64,000 nucleotides of DNA, taken from Polyangiales bacterium. Its GTDB lineage: Bacteria; Myxococcota_A; Polyangia; Polyangiales; Polyangiaceae. Below, one piece after another: positions 3,276 to 26,559 of the stretch. Under the pieces are notes generated by a model that worked only from the letters and a program-made list of their open reading frames with translations, had not been told where the DNA came from and made no database searches. Each line of letters begins with the position of its first letter. Position 1 is the stretch's first letter. The DNA lies in assembly GCA_038231275.1 (NCBI GenBank), contig JBBRLQ010000018.1, positions 96,001 to 160,000 of the forward strand, in the 5' to 3' direction. The position numbers and the translations under genes are program-made.

Positions 3276-4028
3276 ATGTCGATCCCGTCGAACTTCACCC
3301 GTCTCCCCGCCGCCGATCAGCGCGCCCTCCTTCGCGCGATCATCACGCGCTGTACGCCGGACCGCGGCGGCCCGACGCCGGTGATCGTGTTCGATCTCGA
3401 CGGCACGCTGATGGACAACCGGCCCCGCACCGCCGCCATCCTGCATGAGTTCGCGGCGACGCTGCCGACCCATGACGAGGTGCGCACGCGCCTCGCGGCG
3501 ACGAAGGCCGACGAGCTCGCGTACCTCCTGACCGATTCGCTCGGCCGCCTCGGCGTCACGCGCACGGAGCTCGTCGCCGCGGCGGAGGCGTTCTGGCGCG
3601 AGCGCTTCTTCGCCGACGAGCACCTCCGCCACGACGTAGAGGTCCCGGGCGCCGTCGCGTTCGCGCGCGCCTGCTACGAGGCGGGGGCCGTCCTCGTGTA
3701 CATGACCGGCCGCGATTTGCCGCTGATGGGGCTCGGATCGTTCCGGAGCCTCCGCGATCTCGGCTTCCCGATCGGCGTGCCCGGCACCGAGCTCGTGCTG
3801 AAGCCCGACGCGAACATCCCCGACGAGGCCTACAAGCGCATCGAGGGCCCGAAGCTCTCGCGCGTCGGGCGCGTCGTCGCGGTGTTCGACAACGAGCCGG
3901 CGAACTGCAACGCGCTCCTCGAGATGCATCCCGAGTGCGTCAGCGTGCTGCTCGACACGCAGCACCTCCCGGGCGCGCCGCCGCTCCATCCCGACGTGAA
4001 GGTCATCGGCGACTTCGTGATGTCATGA
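3276..4028 (+). CDS. HAD-superfamily hydrolase
   Basis: VFDLDGT motif I, YMTGR motif II, FDNEP motif IV; ATG at 3276 chosen as start. Confidence 0.85.
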   Translation: MSIPSNFTRLPAADQRALLRAIITRCTPDRGGPTPVIVFDLDGTLMDNRPRTAAILHEFAATLPTHDEVRTRLAATKADELAYLLTDSLGRLGVTRTELVAAAEAFWRERFFADEHLRHDVEVPGAVAFARACYEAGAVLVYMTGRDLPLMGLGSFRSLRDLGFPIGVPGTELVLKPDANIPDEAYKRIEGPKLSRVGRVVAVFDNEPANCNALLEMHPECVSVLLDTQHLPGAPPLHPDVKVIGDFVMS

Positions 4029-5278
4029 CGGAGCGCGCCGTCGTGGCGGCGAGCCTCGTCTTTTGCGCGGCGTGCGCGGTCGCCTTGGGCGGGTGCTCAC
4101 GGAGCAGCGGGGCGCTCGACGTGCCCGACGCGCTCGCGAGCCCCCAAGCCAAGGCCGTCCCTGCGCAGCTCGCCGCGATGCCGCAGTTGTCGCCGAGCGG
4201 CGCGCTCCCGCTCAGCCTCGACGCGGGGCCGCCGCCCGTTCCGCTGCGTGGAGACGTCGCGGCGGCGGGCGACTCGGTCGGCACCAAGGAGGTCGTCGGC
4301 TACACGATGCACGCCGTCTTTCGCGCCGGCGATCTGCCGCCTGCGTCGAAGGGACCGGAGGTGAGCCAAGCCGGTCTCGAGGCGGCGAGGCGAAAGACCG
4401 AGCCGCGGATGACGATCGATCTGTCGGCGACGCGCGCGCGCATCGTCCTCGGAAACGGCTTCGTCCTGCCTGCGGAGAGCGAGCTCCGCGCGCGCGTCGA
4501 TCGGTACGGCTTCTTGTTGATGGCCCCCGGTGGCGGCGCGTATCGGAACGCGGCGCCCGGCAGCCTCCGCGCGCTCCTCGGCGAACGCCGCCTCGACGTC
4601 GCGCCGCTCTCGCCCGCCGACGTCGCGCCGCGCGGCGAGGGACCACGCCTCGTCGGATACCGCACGCGCCGCGTCGAGATCGTGACACGCGCCGCGAACG
4701 CGACGATCGAGATCGCGCACGTCCCGGACGCAGGCGATGGCGGATCGCTCCTCTGCCGTGCGCTGCTGGACCTCGTCAACGCGCCGCCGTCGACGCCGCT
4801 CTGCGGCTGGGAGGACGTGCCGCTGCACGCCGAGCTGCGCTGGACCACGCGCGGCGCGCTCGGATTCGAGGTCACGAGCATCACGCGCCACACCGATCTG
4901 TCGCCGCTGGTGCTCGCCGCGCCGCCCGCGACAGCTGCATTTTTGCCGACGCCGCCGCCGCCGAGCGCGGGCGAGGCGCTCCTGGGGCAGAACGATCTCG
5001 CGGCGCTCCGAACGCAACCGGTCGAGGTGCCGGATGCAGGCGCGGACGCGGCGCTGGGGCTCGTGCTCATCAACTCGACCGACGAGCTGCGCGTCGCGTG
5101 GCTCGACGGCGTGCCGGTGGCGTGGGTCGGCCCCGGCGCGCGCCTCGCGATCCCCGGCCTCGTGCGCGGCCGCTACACGCTCGCGTGGCGGACCTTCCTG
5201 GGAGACGTGCTCGAGCCGCCGCAGCCGATCACCATCCCTGGCACGAACCGCGTCGGCCCGGAGGATGGCGGCCTGTAG
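4025..5278 (+). CDS. Hypothetical lipoprotein (DUF4412-like segment)
   Basis: ATGA overlap with the HAD gene; signal ending LGGC; GEGPRLVGYRTRRVEI resembles DUF4412/GLPGLI-type strands. Confidence 0.7.
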   Translation: MTERAVVAASLVFCAACAVALGGCSRSSGALDVPDALASPQAKAVPAQLAAMPQLSPSGALPLSLDAGPPPVPLRGDVAAAGDSVGTKEVVGYTMHAVFRAGDLPPASKGPEVSQAGLEAARRKTEPRMTIDLSATRARIVLGNGFVLPAESELRARVDRYGFLLMAPGGGAYRNAAPGSLRALLGERRLDVAPLSPADVAPRGEGPRLVGYRTRRVEIVTRAANATIEIAHVPDAGDGGSLLCRALLDLVNAPPSTPLCGWEDVPLHAELRWTTRGALGFEVTSITRHTDLSPLVLAAPPATAAFLPTPPPPSAGEALLGQNDLAALRTQPVEVPDAGADAALGLVLINSTDELRVAWLDGVPVAWVGPGARLAIPGLVRGRYTLAWRTFLGDVLEPPQPITIPGTNRVGPEDGGL

Positions 5279-5284
5279 TCGCGT

Positions 5285-5935
5285 TTACGCTGCCGCCGAC
5301 TGCGGCTTGAAGAGCGGTCCGCCCATCGGAAAAATCGCGCGACCCGCGGCGCCGTTCAGCAGGATGGCGAGCGCGATGTAGAGCGCGATGCCTCCGAGCG
5401 CGATGGTCGCCAGCCCTACGCCGAACGCCAACGTCGGCCCCGCGGACGGCACGAAATGGCGCGCGATGCGCAGTAGGTAGAGCAGATCGATGTCGAGCAG
5501 GAACACGAAGAGGAGCTTCGAGAAGAAGCCGAACGCGTACGTCAGCACGACGAAGATCACGATGAACGCGAAGTCGACGCTGAGGCCCACCATCGGATCG
5601 GGGATTTTTCCCTGCGACAGCTGGTCGAGCACCCACCAGTTCATCACCCAGTTGAACGAGAACGTCGTCAGCAGCGTCCCGCCCAGCGTGTTCTTGTTCG
5701 CGAGCGACATCATCCCCGCGAGGAACTGGCAGCCGGCGCCGAAGAGCAGACAGAACCACGAGGCGCTGCGGAACATCGACGCGGCCGCCACCGGATCGCG
5801 CGGGATCATCCCGAACGCGATCGGCACGAGCGCGCCGCAGCCGATGGCGAGGCCGAGGAGACCGAGCGGCGTCGGCTCCCCGAAGACCGGCGGCGAAGGT
5901 GCGGAGACCGCGTGACCGTTGGGGCTGGGTTCCAT
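5285..5935 (-). CDS. GPR1/FUN34/YaaH (SatP/AceTr) acetate-uptake family transporter
   Basis: EPTPLGLLG variant of the NPAPLGL motif, GAGCQFLAGMM, about six TM helices. Confidence 0.85.
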   Translation of the reverse strand: MEPSPNGHAVSAPSPPVFGEPTPLGLLGLAIGCGALVPIAFGMIPRDPVAAASMFRSASWFCLLFGAGCQFLAGMMSLANKNTLGGTLLTTFSFNWVMNWWVLDQLSQGKIPDPMVGLSVDFAFIVIFVVLTYAFGFFSKLLFVFLLDIDLLYLLRIARHFVPSAGPTLAFGVGLATIALGGIALYIALAILLNGAAGRAIFPMGGPLFKPQSAAA

Positions 5936-5975
5936 GGCGCCCTTATCGCAAACCGCGGGCCCTGCCGCACGCCCC

Positions 5976-6007
5976 AAAGTTGTACTACAAATTGGTAATA
6001 CAACTTT
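5976..6007. promoter_or_regulatory. AT-rich inverted repeat; candidate tandem GntR/FadR-family operators (may also terminate pilT)
   Basis: AAAGTTGTA-N14-TACAACTTT containing TTGTACTACAA and AATTGGTAATACAACTT, about 40 bp upstream of the transporter start. Confidence 0.6.
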
Positions 6008-6010
6008 TGT

Positions 6011-7576
6011 TCAGGCGCGTGTGTACGACTCGAACGACGCAAGATCGTTGACGAACCCGCGCGCTACATCGACGGTGACAGCGCCCTCCTTGATCATGTT
6101 CGCGAGGCAGCGCTCGAGCGGCAGCATGCCCTCGCGCCGGCTCGACTGGAGGATGCTCGGGATCTGCGCGGTCTTGCCTTCGCGTACGGCGGTGGCGACG
6201 GCGTGCGTGCCTCGCAAGATTTCGAGAGCGGGAATCCTACCGCCTCCTCGCGCACGCGGGAGGAGACGCTGCGCGACGATCGCCCGAAGCGCGTCGGCGA
6301 GCTGGACGCGGATTTGCCCCTGACGCTCCGGTGGATACGTGTCGACGATTCGCTCGACGGCCGAACCGGTGCTGCGGCTGTGGAGGCTCGTGAGGACGAG
6401 GTGTCCCGTCTCCGCCGCCGTCAGCGCCAGCGAGATCGTCTCCGGATCGCGCATCTCGCCGACGACGAGCACGTCGGGATCTTCGCGCAGCGCGTCGCGG
6501 AGCCCCGTCGCGAAATCCTTCACGTCGCGCCCGATCTGCCGCTGACGCACGAGTGAGCTTTCCCCATGCGCGGCGAGGACGTACTCGATCGGATCCTCGA
6601 GCGTGACGAGGACCGTCGAGCGTCGCCGCAGCACCTCTTGTGCGAGAGCCGCCAGAGTCGTCGATTTGCCGGAGCCCGTTGGGCCGCACACGATGACGAG
6701 CCCGTGCGGGAGCTGGACGAGATCGTCGAGCGGCACGGGCAGATCGAGGCCGGAGAGCTGCGGCGGTCGTCCCGGCAAAATGCGGATCGCCGCCGCCACA
6801 CCGTTCGCCGAGCGATACACGTTCGCGCGAAAGCGCCCCGCATCCTGCACGTCGAACGCGAAATCGACGGACGCGCCCGCCGCAAGCCGCGCGCGCGCGT
6901 TCGCGTCGAGGTGACCCGCTAGGAGCTGCTCGGTGTCGATTGGGGCGTCGTGGATCGTGCGAAGGCGTCCATCGATGCGGGCGCGAACGGGCTCGCCCGT
7001 ACAGAGATGCACGTCGCTGGCGCGGAGGGCGGCAGCGCGCGAAAGAAGCTCCGCGAGCTCGGAGGACGTCGTCGCGGGAGGCTCGAAGTCGGCTGTGATC
7101 GCGGTCGGCGTCGGGGTCGGGGTCGGGGTCGCGGTCGGGGTCGGGGTCGCGGTCGGGGTCGGGGTCGCGGTCGCGGTCGCGGTCGCGGTCGCGCCGGTGA
7201 ACGGAGCCGGCTCGCGGCGGCGTGCCGACGCGGCAAAGATCACGTCGAAGCCCGATGCGCCTGCACGCGGGACCACCGCCACGTGAAACGAGCCGAGGGG
7301 ACCGGCGTCGTACGTCAGCTCGACGCGACGGCCTGCCCGCAGCTCCTCCTCCCGTTCGGGCGTGAGCAGCCCGCCCATGAGATGGCGCAGCTCGTCGTCG
7401 CTCGTCTCCGGCACGGCGAGCTTCTTCTGCGCGCCATGATGAAACATCCGCGGCGCGCGCCCGGTGCCGAGGCGCAGCTCCGTCGCGCCTTGTTGGGCGA
7501 GGATCCCGAGAAGCCCATCGACCGGTACGCGCAACGCCTTGCCTCCGTCGCGGGGTGAACCCGCCGCGCTCGTCAC
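6011..7576 (-). CDS. pilT: PilT/PilU-family type IV pilus ATPase with an extra N-terminal domain
   Basis: GPTGSGKSTT Walker A, LEDPIEY Asp box, LREDPDVLVVGEMRD Walker B, AAETGHLV...H His box. Confidence 0.9.
   Translation of the reverse strand: MTSAAGSPRDGGKALRVPVDGLLGILAQQGATELRLGTGRAPRMFHHGAQKKLAVPETSDDELRHLMGGLLTPEREEELRAGRRVELTYDAGPLGSFHVAVVPRAGASGFDVIFAASARRREPAPFTGATATATATATPTPTATPTPTATPTPTPTPTAITADFEPPATTSSELAELLSRAAALRASDVHLCTGEPVRARIDGRLRTIHDAPIDTEQLLAGHLDANARARLAAGASVDFAFDVQDAGRFRANVYRSANGVAAAIRILPGRPPQLSGLDLPVPLDDLVQLPHGLVIVCGPTGSGKSTTLAALAQEVLRRRSTVLVTLEDPIEYVLAAHGESSLVRQRQIGRDVKDFATGLRDALREDPDVLVVGEMRDPETISLALTAAETGHLVLTSLHSRSTGSAVERIVDTYPPERQGQIRVQLADALRAIVAQRLLPRARGGGRIPALEILRGTHAVATAVREGKTAQIPSILQSSRREGMLPLERCLANMIKEGAVTVDVARGFVNDLASFESYTRA
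7101..7190. repeat. Hexanucleotide tandem repeat (mostly GCGGTC/GGGGTC) x15 encoding a TA/TP linker
   Basis: Directly visible; encodes ATATATATATPTPTATPTPTATPTPTPTPTA in PilT. Confidence 0.95.
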
Positions 7577-16751: not shown

Positions 16752-17183
16752 GTGATGGCCGCCCGGATGATCTCGCACGCCTCGCGTGTTCTCGCCGCGA
16801 TGATGCTCGCGCTCCCCGTGGTGCTCGTCCCGGCGGCGTGCACGTCGGGCACGACCGACTGCAGCTGCTTCGCCCCGGGCGCGCACGTGCACGTCGCGCC
16901 GGAGAGCGCGGCGGCGGTCACTTCGATCACGCTGCGCGGTCCGGCCTGCGACGGCGTCGCGACGACGTGCGTTCAAGCGGCGGCGACGGGGTGCGAGACG
17001 TACTCGATCGTGCCGAAAGCGGCGGGGAGCTGCAGCGTATCGGTCGTTTTCGTCGACGGCACGTTCACCGCGAGCGTCACGTTCGAGCAGACGAGCGGCT
17101 GCTGCGCGGGCCTCTACGCCAGCCCGTCCAGCGCCGGTGAGATCGACGCCGTTCGTTCGCCCGCCGACGGCGGTGCCGGATGA
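16752..17183 (+). CDS. Small Cys-rich hypothetical lipoprotein
   Basis: Hydrophobic signal ending PAAC; about 8 further Cys; ATGA overlap with the next gene. Confidence 0.65.
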   Translation: MMAARMISHASRVLAAMMLALPVVLVPAACTSGTTDCSCFAPGAHVHVAPESAAAVTSITLRGPACDGVATTCVQAAATGCETYSIVPKAAGSCSVSVVFVDGTFTASVTFEQTSGCCAGLYASPSSAGEIDAVRSPADGGAG

Positions 17184-19789
17184 CGCGCGCGCCCCTCGTC
17201 GTCCTCGGGCTCGGCCTCGCGCTCGCGCCGGCGTGCGGCGGCAAGAAGAACGCAAGAGACCCCATCGGCGTCACCGAGAAGAACCCGCCGGATGGGGGAG
17301 CGGCCGCGGCGCGAAAGATGGATGGGACCCGCCCGCCCGCGTCGTCGTTCATCGCCACCGTCGGCGACAAGAGCATCGGCCCTTTCGCGACGCGCCGTGA
17401 CGGCGTCGGCATGGCGGTGTACGTCGGACCGGCGGACACGGGCGCGCGGCGGGTCGTCAGCGTTCCGCTCGCCGAGGACGGCGAGACCCGCGGCGACGCG
17501 CACGTGGTCGCGCCCGTGAGCGCCGACGTGACCGCCCTCGCGGTGAAGCCCACGCATGGCACGGGCGCAGGCTTCTTGGCCGCGTGGACGTCGCTCACCG
17601 AGCGCGGCGAAGCGTTGACGATCGTCGGCATCGACGACGCGGGAGCGCCGCGCGGCGCCGCGACTGAGCTAGCACGCACGCCGGACGACATCGTGTGGTT
17701 CGACATCCTGCCGTGCGCGAAGGGAGCGGTCGTGGTGTGGGCGGAGGAGACGCGCGGCGGAGACGCGAACGTCCTGTCGGTCGGCATCGAACCGGACGGG
17801 CGCATGCGCGGCGTGCCCGTCCGCATCGCGCGCGGCGTCCTCGGGTGGCAAGTCGCGGCGGCCGGCGACGCGCTGGGCCTCGCGGTCGTGATGACGACCG
17901 GCGAGCCTCAAAAAAAAGGGTCCGCGCGCGCGGGCAGCCTCTCGTGGCTCAGGCTCGACGCCGACGGCAGACCGGCGGGCGCGCCGATCGTCGTGACGCC
18001 CAAGCCGATCGTCAGCGGTGACGTCGACGTCGCGCGGGTCGGCGCGCGCTTCATCTTCGCGTGGACCGATCGCACGGGCAGCGAGTCCGAGGTCACCCTC
18101 GCGAGCGTAGGTGACGACGGCGCCGTTCAGCCGCCGCACCGCGCGCTCAGCGCCGCGGGAGGCTCCGCGCTGGTGGGGCTGACCGCAGGCCCAGCCGGCG
18201 GCCTACTCGCGTGGGACGCGCCGAACCGCCGCGGCCGCCCGACGCGACGCGTGTATCTTGCACACATCGATCCCCTCGGCGAGCTCGACGGGCGCGCGGC
18301 CGCGGTGGATCTCGCGGGACGCGCGGCCCCCGAGGTCGCGGCGACGCAGACCGGCTTCGCGATCAGCGGCGCGGTGCGCTCGGCCGCAGGTGCCGCGCTC
18401 CCCACGTTCGTCCGCTTCGACGCGAACCTCACGGCGGTGCAGACCGAGCCGCTCGTCTTTGGTCCCGCCGACGAGCGAGATCCCGCGCAGCTCGCCTGGG
18501 GCCTCGCGTGCACGGGCGATCGCTGCACGATCCTCACTGCCTCCGGCGATCCGGCAAAGGTCCGCGCCGTCGACCTCGTCGCGCGCACCACGTCGTTTGC
18601 GGCCCCTGTCGCGCCGTCGGTTCCGCCCGACGCGCCACGCCTGGGCGTCGTGACCACACTCGCGCAAGGCGAGCCCTACGCCGACGTCGCGGTCGCGAAG
18701 GTCGGCGACGGCACCGTCGTCGCCCTGCTGACGACCGCCCTCGACGATGCCGCGCAGCGAAAGAACGGTGCCCCGTCCGCGGGCGCGACGCTCACGACGC
18801 GTCAGCTCGACGCCAAAGGCCTCCCTGTCGGCCCGCCGTCCACCATCACGACGCGCGCGCTCACGATCGGCGGCGTGTCCATCGCGGCCGGAGGCGCCCC
18901 CGAGGACGGCGCAGCGATCGCATGGGTCGCGCGAGAAGGCGGCGATCCTCAGGTCCACGTCACGCGCGTCGACAAGCGCGGCAAGCGACAGAACGACATC
19001 CAGCTCACGACCACCAAAGGCGACGCGGCCGACGTCGCGATCGCATGGGCGGGCGGCGGCTGGCTCGTCGCGTGGGTGGATTGGCGCGGCGGCAACGGCG
19101 AGGTTTTCGCCACGAAGGTCGGCCCCGATCTGTCGCGCATCGCCCGCGAAGAGCGCATCACCGACGCTCCCGGCGACGCCAGCGACGTGAGCCTCCTCGC
19201 GCGCGGCGACGCGGCGTGGCTGGCGTGGTCCGACCCACGCGAGAGCCCCGCCGACGGCTTCGCGGACATCTTCGTCACGCAGATCGGCGCGAAGGATGCC
19301 AAGCGCCTCGGCGAGGAGCAGCGAGTCCTCGCGAGCGCCGCGCACTCGCGCTCACCGGTCCTCGCGGGGACCACCGACGGCGTCGCGATCGGTTGGATCG
19401 AGGAGGCGCCTTCCGGAGCCGACGCCCAGAGCTCGGTCGCCCACGGCGCGATGATCGCGCGCCTCGACGAACGTGGAAAACCGCGCGGCGGTCTCTTCAA
19501 GGTGCGCGCCGCCGGAGACGGCTTCCCCACGGCCCTCACGCTCGAAGGTACGGGCACCGGCCTCCGTGGCGTCCTCGCGCGCGGCGATCGTGAGCAGCTC
19601 GAGCTCGACGCGGTCGAGTTCGTCGCGAACGACGCCGGCCCCCGCGCGTTCCCGCTCGTCACACTCGACGGCCCGCCCTCCCTCGACGTGTCGCTCGTCC
19701 TCTTCGACGGCGCCCTCTACTACTACGACGACGGGCCCGAGCCCGGCGACCGACGCGCCCGTCGCGCGGGCATCCTCTGGAAGAAGTGA
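17180..19789 (+). CDS. Large lipoprotein with repeated beta-propeller-like blades
   Basis: LAPAC lipobox; recurring xxAW...DxxG blade motifs (FLAAWT, VVVWAE, FIFAWTD, LLAWD, AIAWV, LVAWVD, WLAWSD). Confidence 0.8.
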   Translation: MTRAPLVVLGLGLALAPACGGKKNARDPIGVTEKNPPDGGAAAARKMDGTRPPASSFIATVGDKSIGPFATRRDGVGMAVYVGPADTGARRVVSVPLAEDGETRGDAHVVAPVSADVTALAVKPTHGTGAGFLAAWTSLTERGEALTIVGIDDAGAPRGAATELARTPDDIVWFDILPCAKGAVVVWAEETRGGDANVLSVGIEPDGRMRGVPVRIARGVLGWQVAAAGDALGLAVVMTTGEPQKKGSARAGSLSWLRLDADGRPAGAPIVVTPKPIVSGDVDVARVGARFIFAWTDRTGSESEVTLASVGDDGAVQPPHRALSAAGGSALVGLTAGPAGGLLAWDAPNRRGRPTRRVYLAHIDPLGELDGRAAAVDLAGRAAPEVAATQTGFAISGAVRSAAGAALPTFVRFDANLTAVQTEPLVFGPADERDPAQLAWGLACTGDRCTILTASGDPAKVRAVDLVARTTSFAAPVAPSVPPDAPRLGVVTTLAQGEPYADVAVAKVGDGTVVALLTTALDDAAQRKNGAPSAGATLTTRQLDAKGLPVGPPSTITTRALTIGGVSIAAGGAPEDGAAIAWVAREGGDPQVHVTRVDKRGKRQNDIQLTTTKGDAADVAIAWAGGGWLVAWVDWRGGNGEVFATKVGPDLSRIAREERITDAPGDASDVSLLARGDAAWLAWSDPRESPADGFADIFVTQIGAKDAKRLGEEQRVLASAAHSRSPVLAGTTDGVAIGWIEEAPSGADAQSSVAHGAMIARLDERGKPRGGLFKVRAAGDGFPTALTLEGTGTGLRGVLARGDREQLELDAVEFVANDAGPRAFPLVTLDGPPSLDVSLVLFDGALYYYDDGPEPGDRRARRAGILWKK

Positions 19790-21207
19790 TGGGCGCGGGA
19801 CGATCGGCGGTGATCGCGCTCGCCGTGAGCGCCGCGCTGGTCGCGACCGGCTGCCCGATGATCCGTCGCCACGAGACGCAGGCGAAGGCCGCAGAGCAAG
19901 CGCTCCCGAAGACCGCCGAGGGTCTCCTCTCCGCCGCGACCGTCTTCAGCAGCGTGCGGCACGAGTTCATCCTCGACCCGACGAGCAGCTTCGCGCCCGG
20001 GCGCGGCCTCCAGAAGCGTGAGAACGGCCTGTGGGAAGCCGTCCCCACCGAGTGCGCGCGGGGCAAGCGCGCGCGAGAGGGCCAGGCCGCACCTCCGCGC
20101 GTCGATCCCGCGACGATCGATTTCGGCTACGTCGGCGTCGCGATCGACTCGTCGCTCGTCGGCCTCGACGCCGATCTCACCAAGTTCTTCGGCGCAGGCT
20201 TCGAGGTGTCGTCCCGCACGCTGCGCCTCGTCGCGATCGCCTTTGCGCGCGATCTCGATCCGCAGTTCTTCGAGGCCTCCGACGACGTCGCCTACGCGGG
20301 CGAGGGCTGCGCCTGCGCGCGCGCGACGCATTTCGTCGGCGCGGTGAAGCTAGGCGCGATGCTCTCGTACGAGACCACCGCGGTCGCCTCCGAGGTGCAC
20401 GGCAACGCGTTCGACTACTTCAAGGCGAAGCTCGCGCTCAAGGACGAGACGGTGAAGGAGCGGCGCGTCGGCGTCCTCGAGATCGACGGCCTCGAGACGC
20501 TCGGCGCCGACGCCACGCACCCGCCCACCTTCCACGTGAAGGACGCCGTGCCGTTGGCGTATTCGGTCTATCCCATCTCCGACGTGTGTCGCTTCGCCCT
20601 ACCGGCGCCCGACGTCGCCCCTGCGCTCGTCGACTTCGGGGACGTCGCGTACGGCGGGGAGTCGACGCGCCTCGTCCACGTGCAGAACCGCGCCGCCATC
20701 GATCTTCTGGCGATCCACGAAGGTCGGAACTTCGCGGTCCCCGCGCGCGGGAGCGTCGACGTCCCCATCTCGTGGCGTCCGCGCGGCGACGCGCTCGGGT
20801 GCGAGGCGCAAACGCGAGAGGAGACGCTGCTCTTCGTGCCGCGCGACGACGGCGTCGTGGTGGTGCCGTCGCAGCAAGCGGTCCGCGTGGTGGAGCGCGT
20901 GCGCGCCGGAAGGGCGTCGCTCCGTCAGGTCGAGCGCATCGACACCGGTGACCACCGCAAGCCCGACTATACGAAGACGCAGCGCGACACGACCTGCCCC
21001 GCCGACTACGCGGCCCGCGCCTGCACGATCGACAACGCCCAGTGCGCCGACAAGAGCGGCGTCTGCAAGGGCGACGGGTATTCCGTGACGGCGGCCCTGA
21101 CGCCGGCCGGGTGCCATTTCGCCTGCCAAGGCCCCGACGCTTTGCTGCGCAGCCAGTTCTGCCGGTTCGACGCGGTCACCGAGTGCGCGCTTCGGTGTGC
21201 AAAATAG
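19786..21207 (+). CDS. Lipoprotein with a divergent MACPF-like region, an Ig-like (ASH/choice-of-anchor D) domain and a Cys-rich C-terminus
   Basis: ATGC lipobox; PGRGL, ATHFVGAVKLGA, VPLAYSVYPISDV; VDFGDVAYG.ESTRLVHVQN. The ORF is solid; the domain call is tentative. Confidence 0.65.
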   Translation: MMGAGRSAVIALAVSAALVATGCPMIRRHETQAKAAEQALPKTAEGLLSAATVFSSVRHEFILDPTSSFAPGRGLQKRENGLWEAVPTECARGKRAREGQAAPPRVDPATIDFGYVGVAIDSSLVGLDADLTKFFGAGFEVSSRTLRLVAIAFARDLDPQFFEASDDVAYAGEGCACARATHFVGAVKLGAMLSYETTAVASEVHGNAFDYFKAKLALKDETVKERRVGVLEIDGLETLGADATHPPTFHVKDAVPLAYSVYPISDVCRFALPAPDVAPALVDFGDVAYGGESTRLVHVQNRAAIDLLAIHEGRNFAVPARGSVDVPISWRPRGDALGCEAQTREETLLFVPRDDGVVVVPSQQAVRVVERVRAGRASLRQVERIDTGDHRKPDYTKTQRDTTCPADYAARACTIDNAQCADKSGVCKGDGYSVTAALTPAGCHFACQGPDALLRSQFCRFDAVTECALRCAK

Positions 21208-21314
21208 CGACCCGCGCGCGCTTTTGACGCAACCCGCGGCGGCTCGTGCCGATGGGGCAACGAGGAGACGGGCGCGTCCGCCTGGGCCCTCGCTGAACCA
21301 GAGGAGAAAACATC

Positions 21315-21827
21315 ATGGACATCAATGGAATCGGCAATCGCCCCGACGTCACCGCCGTCGCCTCCGCGCCGCGCCCCACCCCGACGCCCGTTCGCGTCCA
21401 CTTCGCGGAGGTCATGGCCAAGACCGTCGTGAGCGGCGCCGAGAGCGCGATCCGCGCGCTTCCCGGCGGGCCCATGATGGCGGTCGCGCTTCGTGGGGGA
21501 GGCGCGGCGTCGGCGTCGACGATGTCGATCACCCGCCCGTTCGGCGGCGCGCACGCCGCGCTCGCGACGCCCGAGGGCCCGGGTGGCTCGGCGTCGGGCC
21601 TCGGCGGAATCGGCGGCGCAGCGACGGGGGTCGGCGGCACCGGCACCGGAACGGGCGCCGAAGGCGGGAGCATCGAGGCGACGATGCAGCAGAGCCAGGA
21701 GATGAACCTCTACTACCTTCAGATCCAGGAGCAGGTGAACGCGCAGAACCGCTCGTTCTCGACGCTCTCCAACGTGCTCAAGGCCGAGCACGACACCGTC
21801 AAGACCGCCATCGGCAACGTTCGCTGA
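21315..21827 (+). CDS. Hypothetical protein with a T3SS needle/inner-rod-like C-terminal helix
   Basis: GAGGAG RBS; Gly/Thr-rich linker; ends YLQIQEQVNAQNRSFSTLSNVLKAEHDTVKTAIGNVR. Confidence 0.75.
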   Translation: MDINGIGNRPDVTAVASAPRPTPTPVRVHFAEVMAKTVVSGAESAIRALPGGPMMAVALRGGGAASASTMSITRPFGGAHAALATPEGPGGSASGLGGIGGAATGVGGTGTGTGAEGGSIEATMQQSQEMNLYYLQIQEQVNAQNRSFSTLSNVLKAEHDTVKTAIGNVR

Positions 21828-21894
21828 AACGATGGCGATCCCGCTCACCTGTGCTCGCGCTTGCTTCGTTCGACCTGTAGTCTAGGAGACGGCC

Positions 21895-22257
21895 ATGCCG
21901 ATCGATCCCATCGGAAAAGGCGGGGGGATCCCGCCGCAGACGCCTGGCCCCACCGGTCCGGACGCGGTGGCCCCGACCAAGGCGTTCGAGGTGAGCCCAG
22001 CGGGCGGGGCGCAGAAGGCCGAGGGCGCGCAGGCGGTCTCGGCCGGCCCGCTCGACGAGCTGCGCGCCGGAAAGATCGACGTGAATCGGTACGTCGATCT
22101 CAAGCTCGACGAGGCGACCGCGCACCTGAAGGGGCTGCACACGTCCGAGCTCGCGCACATCCGCGACGTCCTGCGCGACAAGATCGTCCACGATCCGCAG
22201 ATCGCGGATCTCGTGCGCCAGGCCGCGGGCGCGGTGCCGGCCCCGCACGACGAATGA
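21895..22257 (+). CDS. Small hypothetical protein (disordered Pro/Gly N-terminus, helical C-terminus)
   Basis: AGGAG RBS; typical codon bias; ATGA overlap with the next gene. Confidence 0.75.
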   Translation: MPIDPIGKGGGIPPQTPGPTGPDAVAPTKAFEVSPAGGAQKAEGAQAVSAGPLDELRAGKIDVNRYVDLKLDEATAHLKGLHTSELAHIRDVLRDKIVHDPQIADLVRQAAGAVPAPHDE

Positions 22258-23210
22258 GCGCGCCCCTCCTCTCGCGCCGCGCGCTCCTCGTCGGCGTGGG
22301 CGCGGGCGTCGCGACAGGATGCTCGAAGAAAGAGCCCCCGCCTCCGATCGTCGCGTCGAGCCCTCCGCCACCGCCTCCGCTCGACGCAGGAATGCGCGGG
22401 TCGTCGCGGCTCGTCACGATGACGTTCGACGCCGACGCCGGCGGGCCACAGACGGCCGCGATCTTGGTGCCGACGTGGGGCCCCGAGGGGACGCGCTTCC
22501 CGGTGGTGGTTGCCTTGCACGGGCGCGGCGAGGCGCTGAAAGGCCCCGATCGCGGCGCGTTCGGCTGGCCGCGCGATTACGCCCTCTCGCGCGCGATGGA
22601 ACGCATCGCGTCACCGCCGGTCACCCCCGCCGATCTCGAGGGCTTCGTCGACGACGCTCGGCTCGCGCAGATGAACACCGATCTGGCGGCGCGCCCGTTC
22701 GGCGGCGTCATCGTCGCGTGCCCGTACGTTCCCGATCTGGATCTGCGAACCTTCAAGGACGTGCGCGCGTACGGAAAATGGATCGTGGAGGTCTTCCTCC
22801 CGCGCGTCCGCCGCGAGACGCCCGCGATCGCGTCGTTCGAGGCGACTGGCATCGACGGAGTGTCGCTCGGCGGCGCGACGGCGCTGCGGGTCGGCTTCGC
22901 GAATCCGGAGGCGTTCGGCGCGGTCGGCGCGCTGCAACCCGCAGTCTTCGACGACCAGGCGCAGGAGTGGACCGAGCTCGCGCGCTACGCGAGGAAGAAA
23001 CGCCCAAGCATGGCGCTCCGCCTCGTCACGAGCCACGACGACTACTACAACGGCCCCATCACGCACCTTTCCCAGGCGTGGCGCGCAGGCGGCGTCGAGC
23101 ACGAGTTCGCGGATCTGCCCGGACCTCACGACTACGCGTTCAACCGCGGCCCCGGCAGCTACGAGCTCCTCTCGTGGCACGATCGCGTCCTCCGCCGCGC
23201 GTCGCGTTGA
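22254..23210 (+). CDS. Alpha/beta-hydrolase (putative esterase), Tat-exported lipoprotein
   Basis: SRRALL twin-Arg signal plus ATGC; PVVVALHG, GVSLGG nucleophile elbow, PGPHDY. Confidence 0.85.
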   Translation: MSAPLLSRRALLVGVGAGVATGCSKKEPPPPIVASSPPPPPPLDAGMRGSSRLVTMTFDADAGGPQTAAILVPTWGPEGTRFPVVVALHGRGEALKGPDRGAFGWPRDYALSRAMERIASPPVTPADLEGFVDDARLAQMNTDLAARPFGGVIVACPYVPDLDLRTFKDVRAYGKWIVEVFLPRVRRETPAIASFEATGIDGVSLGGATALRVGFANPEAFGAVGALQPAVFDDQAQEWTELARYARKKRPSMALRLVTSHDDYYNGPITHLSQAWRAGGVEHEFADLPGPHDYAFNRGPGSYELLSWHDRVLRRASR

Positions 23211-23225
23211 CTTGGGAAGGAGCCT

Positions 23226-23801
23226 TCAGGCGTCTTCTTCCCGTAAACGAATCGGGCTGAACGCGCTCGGATCGTAAGCGGTCGGGTTCTTTTCCTTGTA
23301 GAATGCACGAATACGGTCCATGTCGGCGCGCACGTCGCCGGTCAGCGTGATCGCCGCGCCGAGCCCCGCGCGCTTGCGGCCGAAGTCGAGGTAGCCAGGG
23401 ACCACGGGGACGTCGGCGCCCCGCGCGATGTGGTAAAAACCGGACTTCCACGCCTCCGCGCGCGAGCGCGTGCCCTCCGGCGGGATGGCGAGCACGAATG
23501 CGTCGCGCGCGCGGAACTGTTCGATCATCTGCTCGACGACGTTCCGCGAGCGGCTCCGGTCGATCGCGACCGCGCCGAGGCGTCGCATCGGAGGACCCAT
23601 CGGTCCTTTGACCCACGCATCCTTCACCATCCAGTCGATCTGGAGGCCGATGCTGCGCGTGAGCCCGATGAGGAGGAGCCCGTCCCAGTTGCTCGTGTGC
23701 GGCACCGCGAGCAGCACGTACTTCTTCTCGGGAGGGACCGGCCCTTCGTATTTCCACCCGACGAGCTGGAGAGACAGACGCGCGGCGTGGCTCGGCTTCA
23801 C
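23226..23801 (-). CDS. PlsC-like lysophospholipid acyltransferase
   Basis: PHTSNWD (HxxxxD), IDR, PPEGTRS, WKSGFYHIA; GTG start inferred. Confidence 0.9.
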   Translation of the reverse strand: MKPSHAARLSLQLVGWKYEGPVPPEKKYVLLAVPHTSNWDGLLLIGLTRSIGLQIDWMVKDAWVKGPMGPPMRRLGAVAIDRSRSRNVVEQMIEQFRARDAFVLAIPPEGTRSRAEAWKSGFYHIARGADVPVVPGYLDFGRKRAGLGAAITLTGDVRADMDRIRAFYKEKNPTAYDPSAFSPIRLREEDA

Positions 23802-23859
23802 GACCCAAAGTCTTACGAGTTGCGGGTGCTGGAGGCCACCCCCTTGCAGCGGAAAGGGT

Positions 23860-26559
23860 ATGATGCCGCCGATCCATGGTGTCGGCATTGGTGACCGCGT
23901 GACCTTGCTCTCGCTCGAGTCGCTCGCCAAAAAGCGCGCGGACCCTCGCGTGGTCGGCGGGAAGGCCGCGGGGCTCGCGTGGCTCCTCAAGAACGATTTC
24001 GCGGTGCCCGAGGGGTGGGTGATCCCGCAGGAGTCGTTCGAGGCGGCGATCCGCGAGCTGTCGCCGGGATGCGAGCCGCGATCGCTCCTCCGCGCCGCGT
24101 CGGGTCGCGCCGGATACGCGAGGGCAGCAGAGGCACGTCAGGAGATCCTCGGCGCCGCGCTGCCCAAAGGGCTCGAGGCCGAGCTCGCCGATCTCTGGCG
24201 CCGCATCGAGCGCACGTGCCCGTGGGGCCTCGCCGTGCGCTCGAGCGCCACGTGCGAGGACGGCGCGCTCGTGTCGATGGCCGGCCTCGCGGAGACGCGC
24301 CTCGGGGTGCGCGGCGTGCCTGCGCTGATGGACGCGGTGCGGGCGGTGTGGGCGTCGATCGCGTCGGGTCGTGCGCTCGCGTACCTCGCCGCGCACGGCG
24401 TGAAGGACGTCGGGATGGCGGTGGTCCTCCAGCGGACCGTCGAGGCGCGCGCCGCCGGCGTGATGTTCACGCGCGCGCCCGACCGCAGGAGCGGCAGCGG
24501 CGACGAGCGCATCGTCAACGCCGGCTTCGGCCTCGGCGCACCGGTGGTCGATGGCGTCGCGACCCCCGACATGCTCCGCATCGACGCGCGCGGCCGTACG
24601 ATGGAAGCGACGATCGCCCACAAAACAAGGGCTACCGTGGTCACCGCGAGCGGCCTCAAAGACATCGCCGTCGCCGATCCCGACGCGCCGGCGCTCGGCG
24701 AGGCGCGCCTCGTCGAGCTCGCCGAGATCGCGCTGCGCCTCGAGAGGCTGGAGCGCGTCCCGTGGGATGTCGAGTTCGCGTGCGACGACAACCGCACATG
24801 GCTCGTCCAGGCGCGCCCGATCACCGGCCGCGGCTTCCCCGAGGGCGGCGACGAGACGACGGTGTGGAGCAGCGCGAACATCGGCGAGGCGCTCCCCGGC
24901 GTCGCGACGCCGCTCACCTGGTCGATCGCGGGAGCGTTCAGCGACGGGGGCTTTCGCAGCGCGTTCGCGGCGCTTGGCTGCACGGTGCCCAAGAACGCGC
25001 ACCTCGTCGGCAACGTCTACGGCCGCTTCTACCTCAACCTCTCGCAGTTCATGCGCATCGCCGCGCAAGTGCCGTGGCTCGACGCGCGCACGCTGGTCGA
25101 GCTCGGCGGAGGCGCGGGCGGCGACGAGCTCGCGCTTCAGGTCGCCGACGTGTCGCACCGCAGCTTCTACGCGCGCCTGCCGCTCACCGCGACGCGGCTC
25201 ATGAAGGAGCAGCTCCGCCTCGACGACGAGGTCTCCAAGTTCGAAGCGTTCGCGGAGAAGGCGCAGCGCATTCAGAGCGCGCTCGATCTCGCGATCCTGC
25301 CGGACGACGGCCTCGCGCGCACGCTGCGCGATTTGCAGGGGCTCCTCGAGCGGACCGGAAACGTGATGCTCACGTGCGCGTCGAGCGCCCTCGGCACGCA
25401 CCTCGCGCTCAAGATGCTCCTCTCGCGGGTCGCGCCGATCGGCGCCGAGCGGCTCGCGCAAGGCCTGAGCAGCGGCATCCGCGATCTCGAGAGCGCGCGT
25501 CCGGCGATCGGAATCCTGCGCATCGTGGCGCTCGCACGCCGCGAGCCGGAGGCACGCGCGGTGCTGGAAAAAGAAGGCATCGGCCTCGACGCGATCCCCG
25601 ACGGCCCCACCCGCCGCGCGCTCCAGAGCTACTTCGAGCTGTACGGCGATCGCGCCGTGCGTGAAGCCGAGCTGTCGACGCCGCGCTGGCGAGAAGATCC
25701 GCGCCCGGTCCTCACGATGGTCCGCGTCTCGCTCCGCGGCGAAGCGCGCGATCTCGAGGCGCAGATCGCGCGCGCAAAGGCGCACGCCGACGCGGAGATG
25801 GCGAAGCTCCTGCCGCGCCTCTCGCTCATCGAGCAGACGGCGGTGCGGCACCTCGTCGCGCGCGCGCAGAGATCGGCGCGGCTCCGCGAGCGAATGCGCG
25901 CGTGGGTGACGCGCGTGCTTGGGATGCTCCGCGAGGCCGCGCTCGACGCGGAGCGGCGCTTGCTTCGCCTGGCGCCGGAGCTCGTGCAAGACCAGCTCTC
26001 GCTCGCCAAAGCCGGCTCCACCGTGGCGCAGATCCCCAGCGTGTTCTTTTTCACCGTCGACGAGCTGGTGCACGCGCTCAAGAGCTCGCGCACCGATCTG
26101 GCGCCGCTCGTGCGCGCGCGACGCGCCGAGTTCGCGCGGGATCAGGCGCGCCCCGATCCGCCGCCGACCTTCACGGGGGCGCCGCCGCCGGTCGTCCTTC
26201 CGCCGTCGAGCGGGGACACGCTGCGCGGCTTGCCTGCGTCGGGCGGCGTCGTCGAGGGGCGCGCGCGCGTGCTGCTCGGGCCCGATCACATGGGCGAGCT
26301 CGTACCGGGGGAGGTCCTCGTCGTCCACACGACCGACGTCGGGTGGACGCCGCTCTTTCCGCTCGCCGCCGGCATCGTGACCGAGCTCGGCGGACCGCTG
26401 TCGCACGCCGCCGTCGTCGCGCGGGAGTTCGGGGTGCCGAGCGTCGTGAACGTGCCGGGCGTGACGCGCGCGCTGAAGACCGGCGATCTCGTGCGCGTCG
26501 ACGGCGATCGCGGCGTCGTCGAGCGGCTCGAGCGGCTCGAGCGACCGGCGAAGACGTGA
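23860..26559 (+). CDS. PEP-utilising dikinase-family enzyme with rifampin-phosphotransferase-like architecture
   Basis: N-terminal ATP-grasp (GGKAAGL, AVRSSA..ED, DVEF, QARPIT), helical middle domain, C-terminal swivel TDVGWTPLF...GGPLSHAAVVAREFG. Confidence 0.88.
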   Translation: MMPPIHGVGIGDRVTLLSLESLAKKRADPRVVGGKAAGLAWLLKNDFAVPEGWVIPQESFEAAIRELSPGCEPRSLLRAASGRAGYARAAEARQEILGAALPKGLEAELADLWRRIERTCPWGLAVRSSATCEDGALVSMAGLAETRLGVRGVPALMDAVRAVWASIASGRALAYLAAHGVKDVGMAVVLQRTVEARAAGVMFTRAPDRRSGSGDERIVNAGFGLGAPVVDGVATPDMLRIDARGRTMEATIAHKTRATVVTASGLKDIAVADPDAPALGEARLVELAEIALRLERLERVPWDVEFACDDNRTWLVQARPITGRGFPEGGDETTVWSSANIGEALPGVATPLTWSIAGAFSDGGFRSAFAALGCTVPKNAHLVGNVYGRFYLNLSQFMRIAAQVPWLDARTLVELGGGAGGDELALQVADVSHRSFYARLPLTATRLMKEQLRLDDEVSKFEAFAEKAQRIQSALDLAILPDDGLARTLRDLQGLLERTGNVMLTCASSALGTHLALKMLLSRVAPIGAERLAQGLSSGIRDLESARPAIGILRIVALARREPEARAVLEKEGIGLDAIPDGPTRRALQSYFELYGDRAVREAELSTPRWREDPRPVLTMVRVSLRGEARDLEAQIARAKAHADAEMAKLLPRLSLIEQTAVRHLVARAQRSARLRERMRAWVTRVLGMLREAALDAERRLLRLAPELVQDQLSLAKAGSTVAQIPSVFFFTVDELVHALKSSRTDLAPLVRARRAEFARDQARPDPPPTFTGAPPPVVLPPSSGDTLRGLPASGGVVEGRARVLLGPDHMGELVPGEVLVVHTTDVGWTPLFPLAAGIVTELGGPLSHAAVVAREFGVPSVVNVPGVTRALKTGDLVRVDGDRGVVERLERLERPAKT

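Follow-up and report, generated by a model that had tools for sequence, protein, structure and literature searches.

A probable needle (SctF-like) subunit gene of a scattered type III secretion system in a Polyangiales bacterium

The window, i.e. the whole stretch of 64,000 nucleotides analysed here, is part of contig C18 (JBBRLQ010000018.1, positions 96,001 to 160,000) of a Polyangiales genome (GCA_038231275.1), hereafter G000, whose contigs bear C-numbers. The gene of interest, encoding protein P0001, is an intact ORF of 170 codons at 21315-21827 that ends exactly in the C-terminus quoted in the preliminary description and follows the strong ribosome-binding site announced there. The features of the locus are as follows.

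21229..21257, + strand: sigma-28-like promoter-like site (GCAAC box, 14-nt spacer, GCCGAT box)
21302..21306, + strand: ribosome-binding site AGGAG, 8 nt before the ATG, read from the sequence
21315..21827, + strand: SctF-like (needle-like) gene P0001, 170 aa
21402..21491, + strand: conserved N-terminal helical part, with predicted helices 30-47 and 53-59 around a PGGP turn
21492..21668, + strand: low-complexity Gly-rich linker, 14-82 residues long across 83 family members
21708..21824, + strand: C-terminal 39 residues, ungapped to the SctF C-terminal helix, within predicted helix 119-169
21895..22257, + strand: partner gene F1, 120 aa, with a disordered N-terminus and a small helical domain

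P0001 is a real gene of a conserved, unannotated Myxococcota family. Searches with the protein returned 902 homologues at E<=0.001 from 2886 candidates, as well as 1531 matches in a 50%-identity library, and the few named homologues are hypothetical proteins of Polyangiaceae, Labilithrix or Myxococcota. Members share a three-part layout, in which a conserved N-terminal part (residues about 9-60) is followed by a Gly-rich linker and then by a near-invariant C-terminal helix. The first of these, together with F1 and the promoter-like site, had been missed at first reading, while the long linker before the C-terminus was correctly recognised; in P0001 it covers residues about 60-118 and is made of Gly, Ala, Ser, Thr and Pro (family-wide Gly content 28%). 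Hydropathy over the first 30 residues detected no hydrophobic signal peptide in P0001 or in its aligned relatives (0/83), in agreement with the claim that a Sec signal is absent. Family members are 121-198 aa long and reference needles 73-87 aa, confirming that P0001 is about twice the usual needle length.

AlphaFold modelling of P0001 predicted helices 30-47, 53-59 and 119-169, of which only 119-169 exceeded pLDDT 90 (pTM 0.31). The model has a single long C-terminal helix instead of a confident hairpin, and a fold search with this monomer returned generic long helices only. Scans of Pfam, NCBIfam and PDB with the single P0001 sequence gave no relevant match, and a sigma-70 scan found no promoter. 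The gene lies in a neighbourhood conserved in Polyangia (window 17180-26559), which includes genes for an 869-aa lipoprotein, an esterase, a PEP-utilising enzyme and an SprT-like protein and shows no evident tie to secretion.

A profile comparison of the kind proposed in the preliminary description was carried out against references from public records, comprising alignments of 8 annotated needles (SctF) and of 4-6 inner rods (SctI). In hhalign, the family C-terminal profile matched the 8 SctF sequences with a probability of 65-76% (pairwise E 2e-5 to 6e-5), over 37-39 ungapped columns reaching both C-termini. The SctF score was reached by 0/200 column shuffles and by 0/200 shuffles that kept the heptad pattern. 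The same profile gave 0.3% against SctI, whether 4 or 6 sequences were used, and at most 1.5% against eight other single T3SS proteins; a single EspA sequence scored 1.5%, and the slot at the head of the translocon operon belongs to another gene. A separate sctI-like gene of the same genome gave the mirror outcome in profile-profile comparison, with 69% to SctI and 1.4% to SctF. The suggestion that P0001 could be an inner rod is therefore not supported.

Resemblance to needles outside the C-terminal helix was weak. The N-terminal part scored 0.4% against SctF, a score reached by 2/100 shuffles. In this weak alignment the PGGP motif falls on the needle PxxP turn, and a PxxP-like turn follows the first helix in 41/83 members. 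Since the N-terminal match is weak, a needle hairpin split by the insert is put forward here as a hypothesis. The Pfam needle family T3SS_needle_F (PF09392) matched weakly in 4/83 and 2/39 family members, which placed it joint first by member count (4/83), with best E-values of 0.0085 in one member set and 0.027 in another; no family member was shown to reach the curated cut-off, and P0001 had no match. A PF09392 search of G000 likewise found nothing above the cut-off and nothing at the P0001 gene, and family profiles retrieved no needle from the PDB and, for the C-terminal set, nothing relevant from NCBIfam. On these sequence comparisons P0001 is not a formal PF09392 member. Querying the ESM Atlas with homologue P0093 returned PF09392 on 7/30 nearest clusters, where 11% of members carry it; with only the C-terminal part as query, the needle-labelled clusters stayed below the 0.9 bar.

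A protein longer than SctF with a variable Gly-rich part would also suit an HrpA-like flexible pilin that replaces the stiff needle and whose insert forms a variable surface. Weak HrpA_pilin (PF09589) matches in 3/83 and 2/39 members (E 0.02-0.03) and one HrpF match point the same way. The direct register match to SctF and the presence of a tip and translocon operon (see below) argue against such a pilin, and we consider it very unlikely; in function it would stand close to the needle that we favour.

The C-terminal helix is not confined to the family. It also ends 28/60 proteins that do not have the N-terminal part, 16 of which have signal-peptide-like starts and which include an Acidobacteriota (Terriglobia) protein, and it occurs on a protein of a Spirosoma plasmid, where the annotation shows no T3SS gene within 5 kb. 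The helix alone thus does not imply a T3SS; it is a mobile module, and the case for a needle rests on the context of the full-length family. Helical proteins ending in a needle-type helix are encoded at G000 C18:6708-7406 (-), L113:9644-10183 and L130:4731-5147 and further include P0394, P0400 and P0426. Many have signal-peptide-like starts, some belong to other phyla, and they might form filaments after Sec export or mimic needles. The genomes of family f14 (L103, L116, L117, L120) and G087 have a second paralogue that is longer and shares the C-terminal helix, sometimes in tandem or beside a TPR gene. Searching G000 itself with the C-terminal HMM retrieved no flagellar protein at E<=5.

Such mobility would also fit a self-assembling helical protein that is independent of any T3SS and resembles SctF by convergence. 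In most Polyangia the neighbours of the homologue are unrelated to secretion, as that explanation would have it. In other genomes the homologue stands first in T3SS operons, immediately or almost immediately in front of sctI-sctJ, the slot that holds sctF in reference operons. At least 4/63 GTDB loci are clustered with T3SS genes. Three of them (L055, L059 and L064, similar loci that are probably kin) read sctV, homologue, sctI, then after further genes tip-like, TPR and SctE/SctB-like genes; in L058 a translocon-like operon and a TPR gene precede the homologue and sctI. Genome G003 has the order homologue, sigma, sctI, J, (K), L, N, O, Q, and metagenome loci L253 and L255 have homologue, sctI, J, K-like, Q, fliO-like, R, S, T, U, V, with L248 nearly so. 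The N-terminal part was present in 56/80 metagenome loci, 23/56 of which had T3SS neighbours (17/27 given at least 1.5 kb downstream). Among the 24 loci without it, a T3SS neighbour was seen in 1/24 (1/12), that one cut by a contig end.

Partner gene F1 was present in 55/64 loci, a neighbourhood count to be read with the fact that the gene caller missed genes in low-GC loci. It also follows the homologue in other classes, and in clustered loci it stands between the needle-like gene and sctI. Locus L239 reads needle-like gene, TPR protein, F1, sigma, sctI, and locus L225 needle-like gene, F1, sigma, sctI, then J, K-like and L. A TPR gene adjoins the homologue in L058, L102, L106 and L239. Neither Pfam, PDB sequences nor a fold search (best Z 4.5) yielded a match for F1, and its profile matched none of YscE, YscG, YopR (YopR/YscH 0.7%), SctI and SctF; three TPR proteins compared in the same way matched neither YscG (0.5%) nor YscE. 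These orders fit the F-G-H-I-J-K-L slots of the Ysc operon (yscF-G-H-I-J-K-L), from which they differ in the low scores of F1 and of the TPR proteins and in the inserted sigma factor gene.

Phylogenetic profiling over 151 genomes of the phylum, a sample apparently without Myxococcaceae (TIGR02265 only weak, 5/151), linked the full-length family to the T3SS. Cluster look-ups of 20 proteins named no Myxococcaceae either. It was carried by 30/151 genomes, all 30 of them among the 32 best SctV scorers, and 30/30 carriers had a T3SS-type SctV, a class defined by a best match >=385 bits (gap down to 335; threshold chosen after the scores were seen, subset tree-checked). With the sctI-like alignment as an independent query 28 genomes were matched, and 28/28 lay within the 30 carriers. 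The carriers are related, so these counts are not independent, and we claim no statistical test. No homologue was found in about 14 genomes with a divergent, mostly long-branch non-flagellar SctV, 8 of which were searched again with the C-terminal profile; these genomes may be truly needle-less, or their homologue may have diverged too far. They are listed here.

Divergent SctV, no needle-like gene found: G062, G040, G112, G147, G067, G117, G132
Divergent SctV, no needle-like gene found: G004, G093, G133, G103, G113, G068, G107

Homologues common in genomes without a T3SS had been named at the outset as evidence against a needle. This pattern was found in part for the C-terminal helix alone, on signal-peptide proteins, and not for the full-length family, whose members, devoid of signal peptides, head T3SS operons in several lineages and track sctI and sctV over the 151 genomes. 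Together with a motif common to sctI and a translocon-like operon (below), this makes a convergent, T3SS-independent protein exceedingly improbable.

A second, non-flagellar type III system was found in G000, spread over at least ten contigs. Genes standing alone are sctV (C8), sctU (C2), sctJ (C11), sctS (C14), sctT (C36) and sctQ (C1). The best model for sctV is TIGR01399, and it branched apart from flagellar FlhA in both trees, the second of which was built solely with FastTree, excluding 3 short fragments. A fliO-like gene accompanies sctR, which passes TIGR01102, on C6; sctN is divided between the ends of C24 and C38, one piece on each; and on C2 a FliA-like sigma gene precedes the sctI-like gene. 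A full flagellar cluster with three flagellins, in this Polyangiaceae-level genome, occupies C15 (95000-134000). With 14 T3SS queries, tblastn detected no T3SS gene on the whole of C18, extending to the entire contig the earlier statement that none lies nearby. P0001 had accordingly been described as encoded away from its injectisome. This holds for C18; in the usual sense of a gene away from an injectisome cluster it does not, since almost every T3SS gene of G000 stands alone.

Contig C28 carries an operon (3285-6433) of a 62-aa gene, a tip-like gene, an LcrH/SycD-like chaperone gene (E 1e-11), an SseC-family, SctE-like gene (E 1.5e-6) and a SctB-like gene named by position only. A translocon-like set thus occurs in a group said to have none. 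The tip-like protein shares the C-terminal helix (91% to the P0001 family, 20% to SctF in hhalign; Pfam needle E 0.4). The paralogue might on this account be the filament, or there might be a short periplasmic stub only, with P0001 as a T3SS-exported adaptor, minor subunit or regulator. Two further points favour this alternative: the packing of a tube could suffer from the long linker, and no T3SS secretin was found among the 4 secretins of G000, which by their neighbours belong to a type IV pilus, a type II system, an isolated GspD-like gene and a Tad system. The tip-like gene, however, precedes a chaperone and translocators, which is the slot of a tip or filament, whereas the P0001 family precedes sctI-sctJ, the sctF slot, and the SctF score is higher for the family than for the tip-like protein. 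We therefore regard an adaptor role as unlikely. Separately, the Tad/Kil-like cluster at C5:54900-63700, with an RcpA-type secretin, is a candidate outer-membrane exit for a T3SS filament.

A shared upstream motif tied P0001 to these scattered genes. Among 17 gene starts inspected, in a search that began from the consensus of a sigma-28-type -10 box, the same two-box site was found before the P0001 gene, the sctI-like gene and the C28 operon. A loose form of the motif lay upstream of 55/80 homologues, compared with 86/7913 genes of this genome, while 200 shuffles gave no more than 3. When the three sites were used to define a strict form, it occurred at 17 sites genome-wide against 0.19 expected, and at 0 with four other spacings. 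Further sites stand before two other genes. One encodes a TPR protein and has a homologue next to the needle-like gene in L058; the other, on C22, has homologues in L055, L059 and L064, where they are placed between sctI and the tip-like gene. It was absent before the export-apparatus genes, flagellins and flgM of G000, and was rarer in distant lineages (7/46 and 2/20 metagenome loci, 9/27 sctI loci).

Taken together, similarity to the SctF profile, gene order, co-occurrence and the shared motif support the needle half of the original proposal. We conclude that P0001 probably works as a T3SS needle (SctF-like) subunit and, as such, would be secreted and would polymerise. It is likely to be a long SctF-like variant belonging to an injectisome that is scattered gene by gene, apparently secretin-less and provided with a regulon of its own. 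In the mechanism that we propose, the T3SS-linked FliA-like sigma factor encoded beside sctI would read the shared motif and activate P0001, sctI and the C28 operon together. Export of P0001 would be Sec-independent, the unfolded chain passing through the SctRSTUV gate. The channel wall would be built from its C-terminal helix, stacked on the inner rod; the N-terminal helix would pack on the outer side, and the Gly-rich insert would protrude as a loop. The filament would be capped by the tip-like paralogue, and the translocators would enter a target membrane, most plausibly that of prey bacteria.

Compared with classical needles (MxiH, PrgI, YscF, AscF, EscF; PF09392), the putative subunit has a C-terminal helix that stays in register as far as the last residue, has no Sec signal across its family, precedes sctI-sctJ in clustered loci and, in 41/83 family members, has a PxxP-like turn after the first helix. 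It differs in being about twice as long, in its Gly-rich insert of 14-82 residues, in falling below the Pfam cut-off, in a gene unlinked from the apparatus in most Polyangia and in the failure to find a dedicated secretin. Within the phylum, Abby and Rocha (2012) describe the myxobacterial non-flagellar T3SS as restricted to Cystobacterineae and as without secretin, SctF, tip and translocon (PMC3459982). The same absences are repeated for the needle-less T3SS* of M. xanthus (PMC10433427, PMC12075869), and a bradymonad system is termed needle-less (PMC11509652). The published myxobacterial systems share with the present one the phylum, the export apparatus, SctJ, SctI, SctN, SctQ, LcrH-like chaperones and the absence of a secretin, and L248, L253 and L255 resemble in content the 'short' Myxo locus of PMC3459982. 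Unlike the published systems, the one described here has needle-like, tip-like and SctE/SctB-like genes, occurs in Polyangia as well as in other classes and has its genes dispersed one by one. Dispersed T3SS genes are described for Chlamydiales in PMC3459982, at several loci, and in Chlamydia at least four together with a secretin; the present system differs in occupying more than ten mostly single-gene loci, with substrate genes tied by one promoter-like motif. A literature search that reached few subscription papers found no report of a myxobacterial SctF.

How a myxobacterial T3SS devoid of needle, tip and translocon delivers to prey is asked in all four papers (PMC3459982, PMC10433427, PMC12075869, PMC11509652). 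If P0001 is a needle subunit, many predatory myxobacteria termed 'needle-less' would carry a needle gene. The needle-like gene and its tip-like and translocator-like partners provide named targets for deletion and labelling in addressing that question, and the cultured, non-pathogenic Labilithrix luteola is among the carriers of the gene (L062). The gene is also relevant to the evolutionary model that has SctF lost from the basal Myxo lineage.

The shared motif also yields a short candidate regulon that includes likely substrates. The strict form is carried by dprA (C2:76890-77789; Pfam E 4e-39) and by a comF-like gene encoding a zinc ribbon and a PRTase, outside the window (C18:179684-180355), which suggests that DNA uptake is co-regulated with T3SS substrates. 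More tentatively, and at somewhat less than even odds in our judgement, Myxococcota predators, possibly including the M. xanthus lineage, could have a real needle, made of a long SctF with an insert and mounted on a basal body that has no secretin; in Polyangia its genes would be strewn singly over the chromosome under one sigma-28-like regulon including dprA and the comF-like gene, coupling prey injection with capture of prey DNA. If so, the earliest-branching injectisome would have kept needle, tip and translocon.

Other motif-bearing genes were noted in G000. The C22 gene (52076-52741, -) encodes 221 aa with a disordered N-terminus and a small C-terminal domain, an architecture similar to that of a needle-length ruler; comparisons with Pfam, FliK and Spa32 gave no match. 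Genes that belong to no known family also bear the motif at C2:9350-11108 and C17:80421-81556; small genes come after them, an arrangement like that of toxin and immunity pairs, and they are candidate antibacterial substrates. Finally, a weaker copy of the motif lies upstream of a VgrG-like gene at C2:20931-22439 (-).
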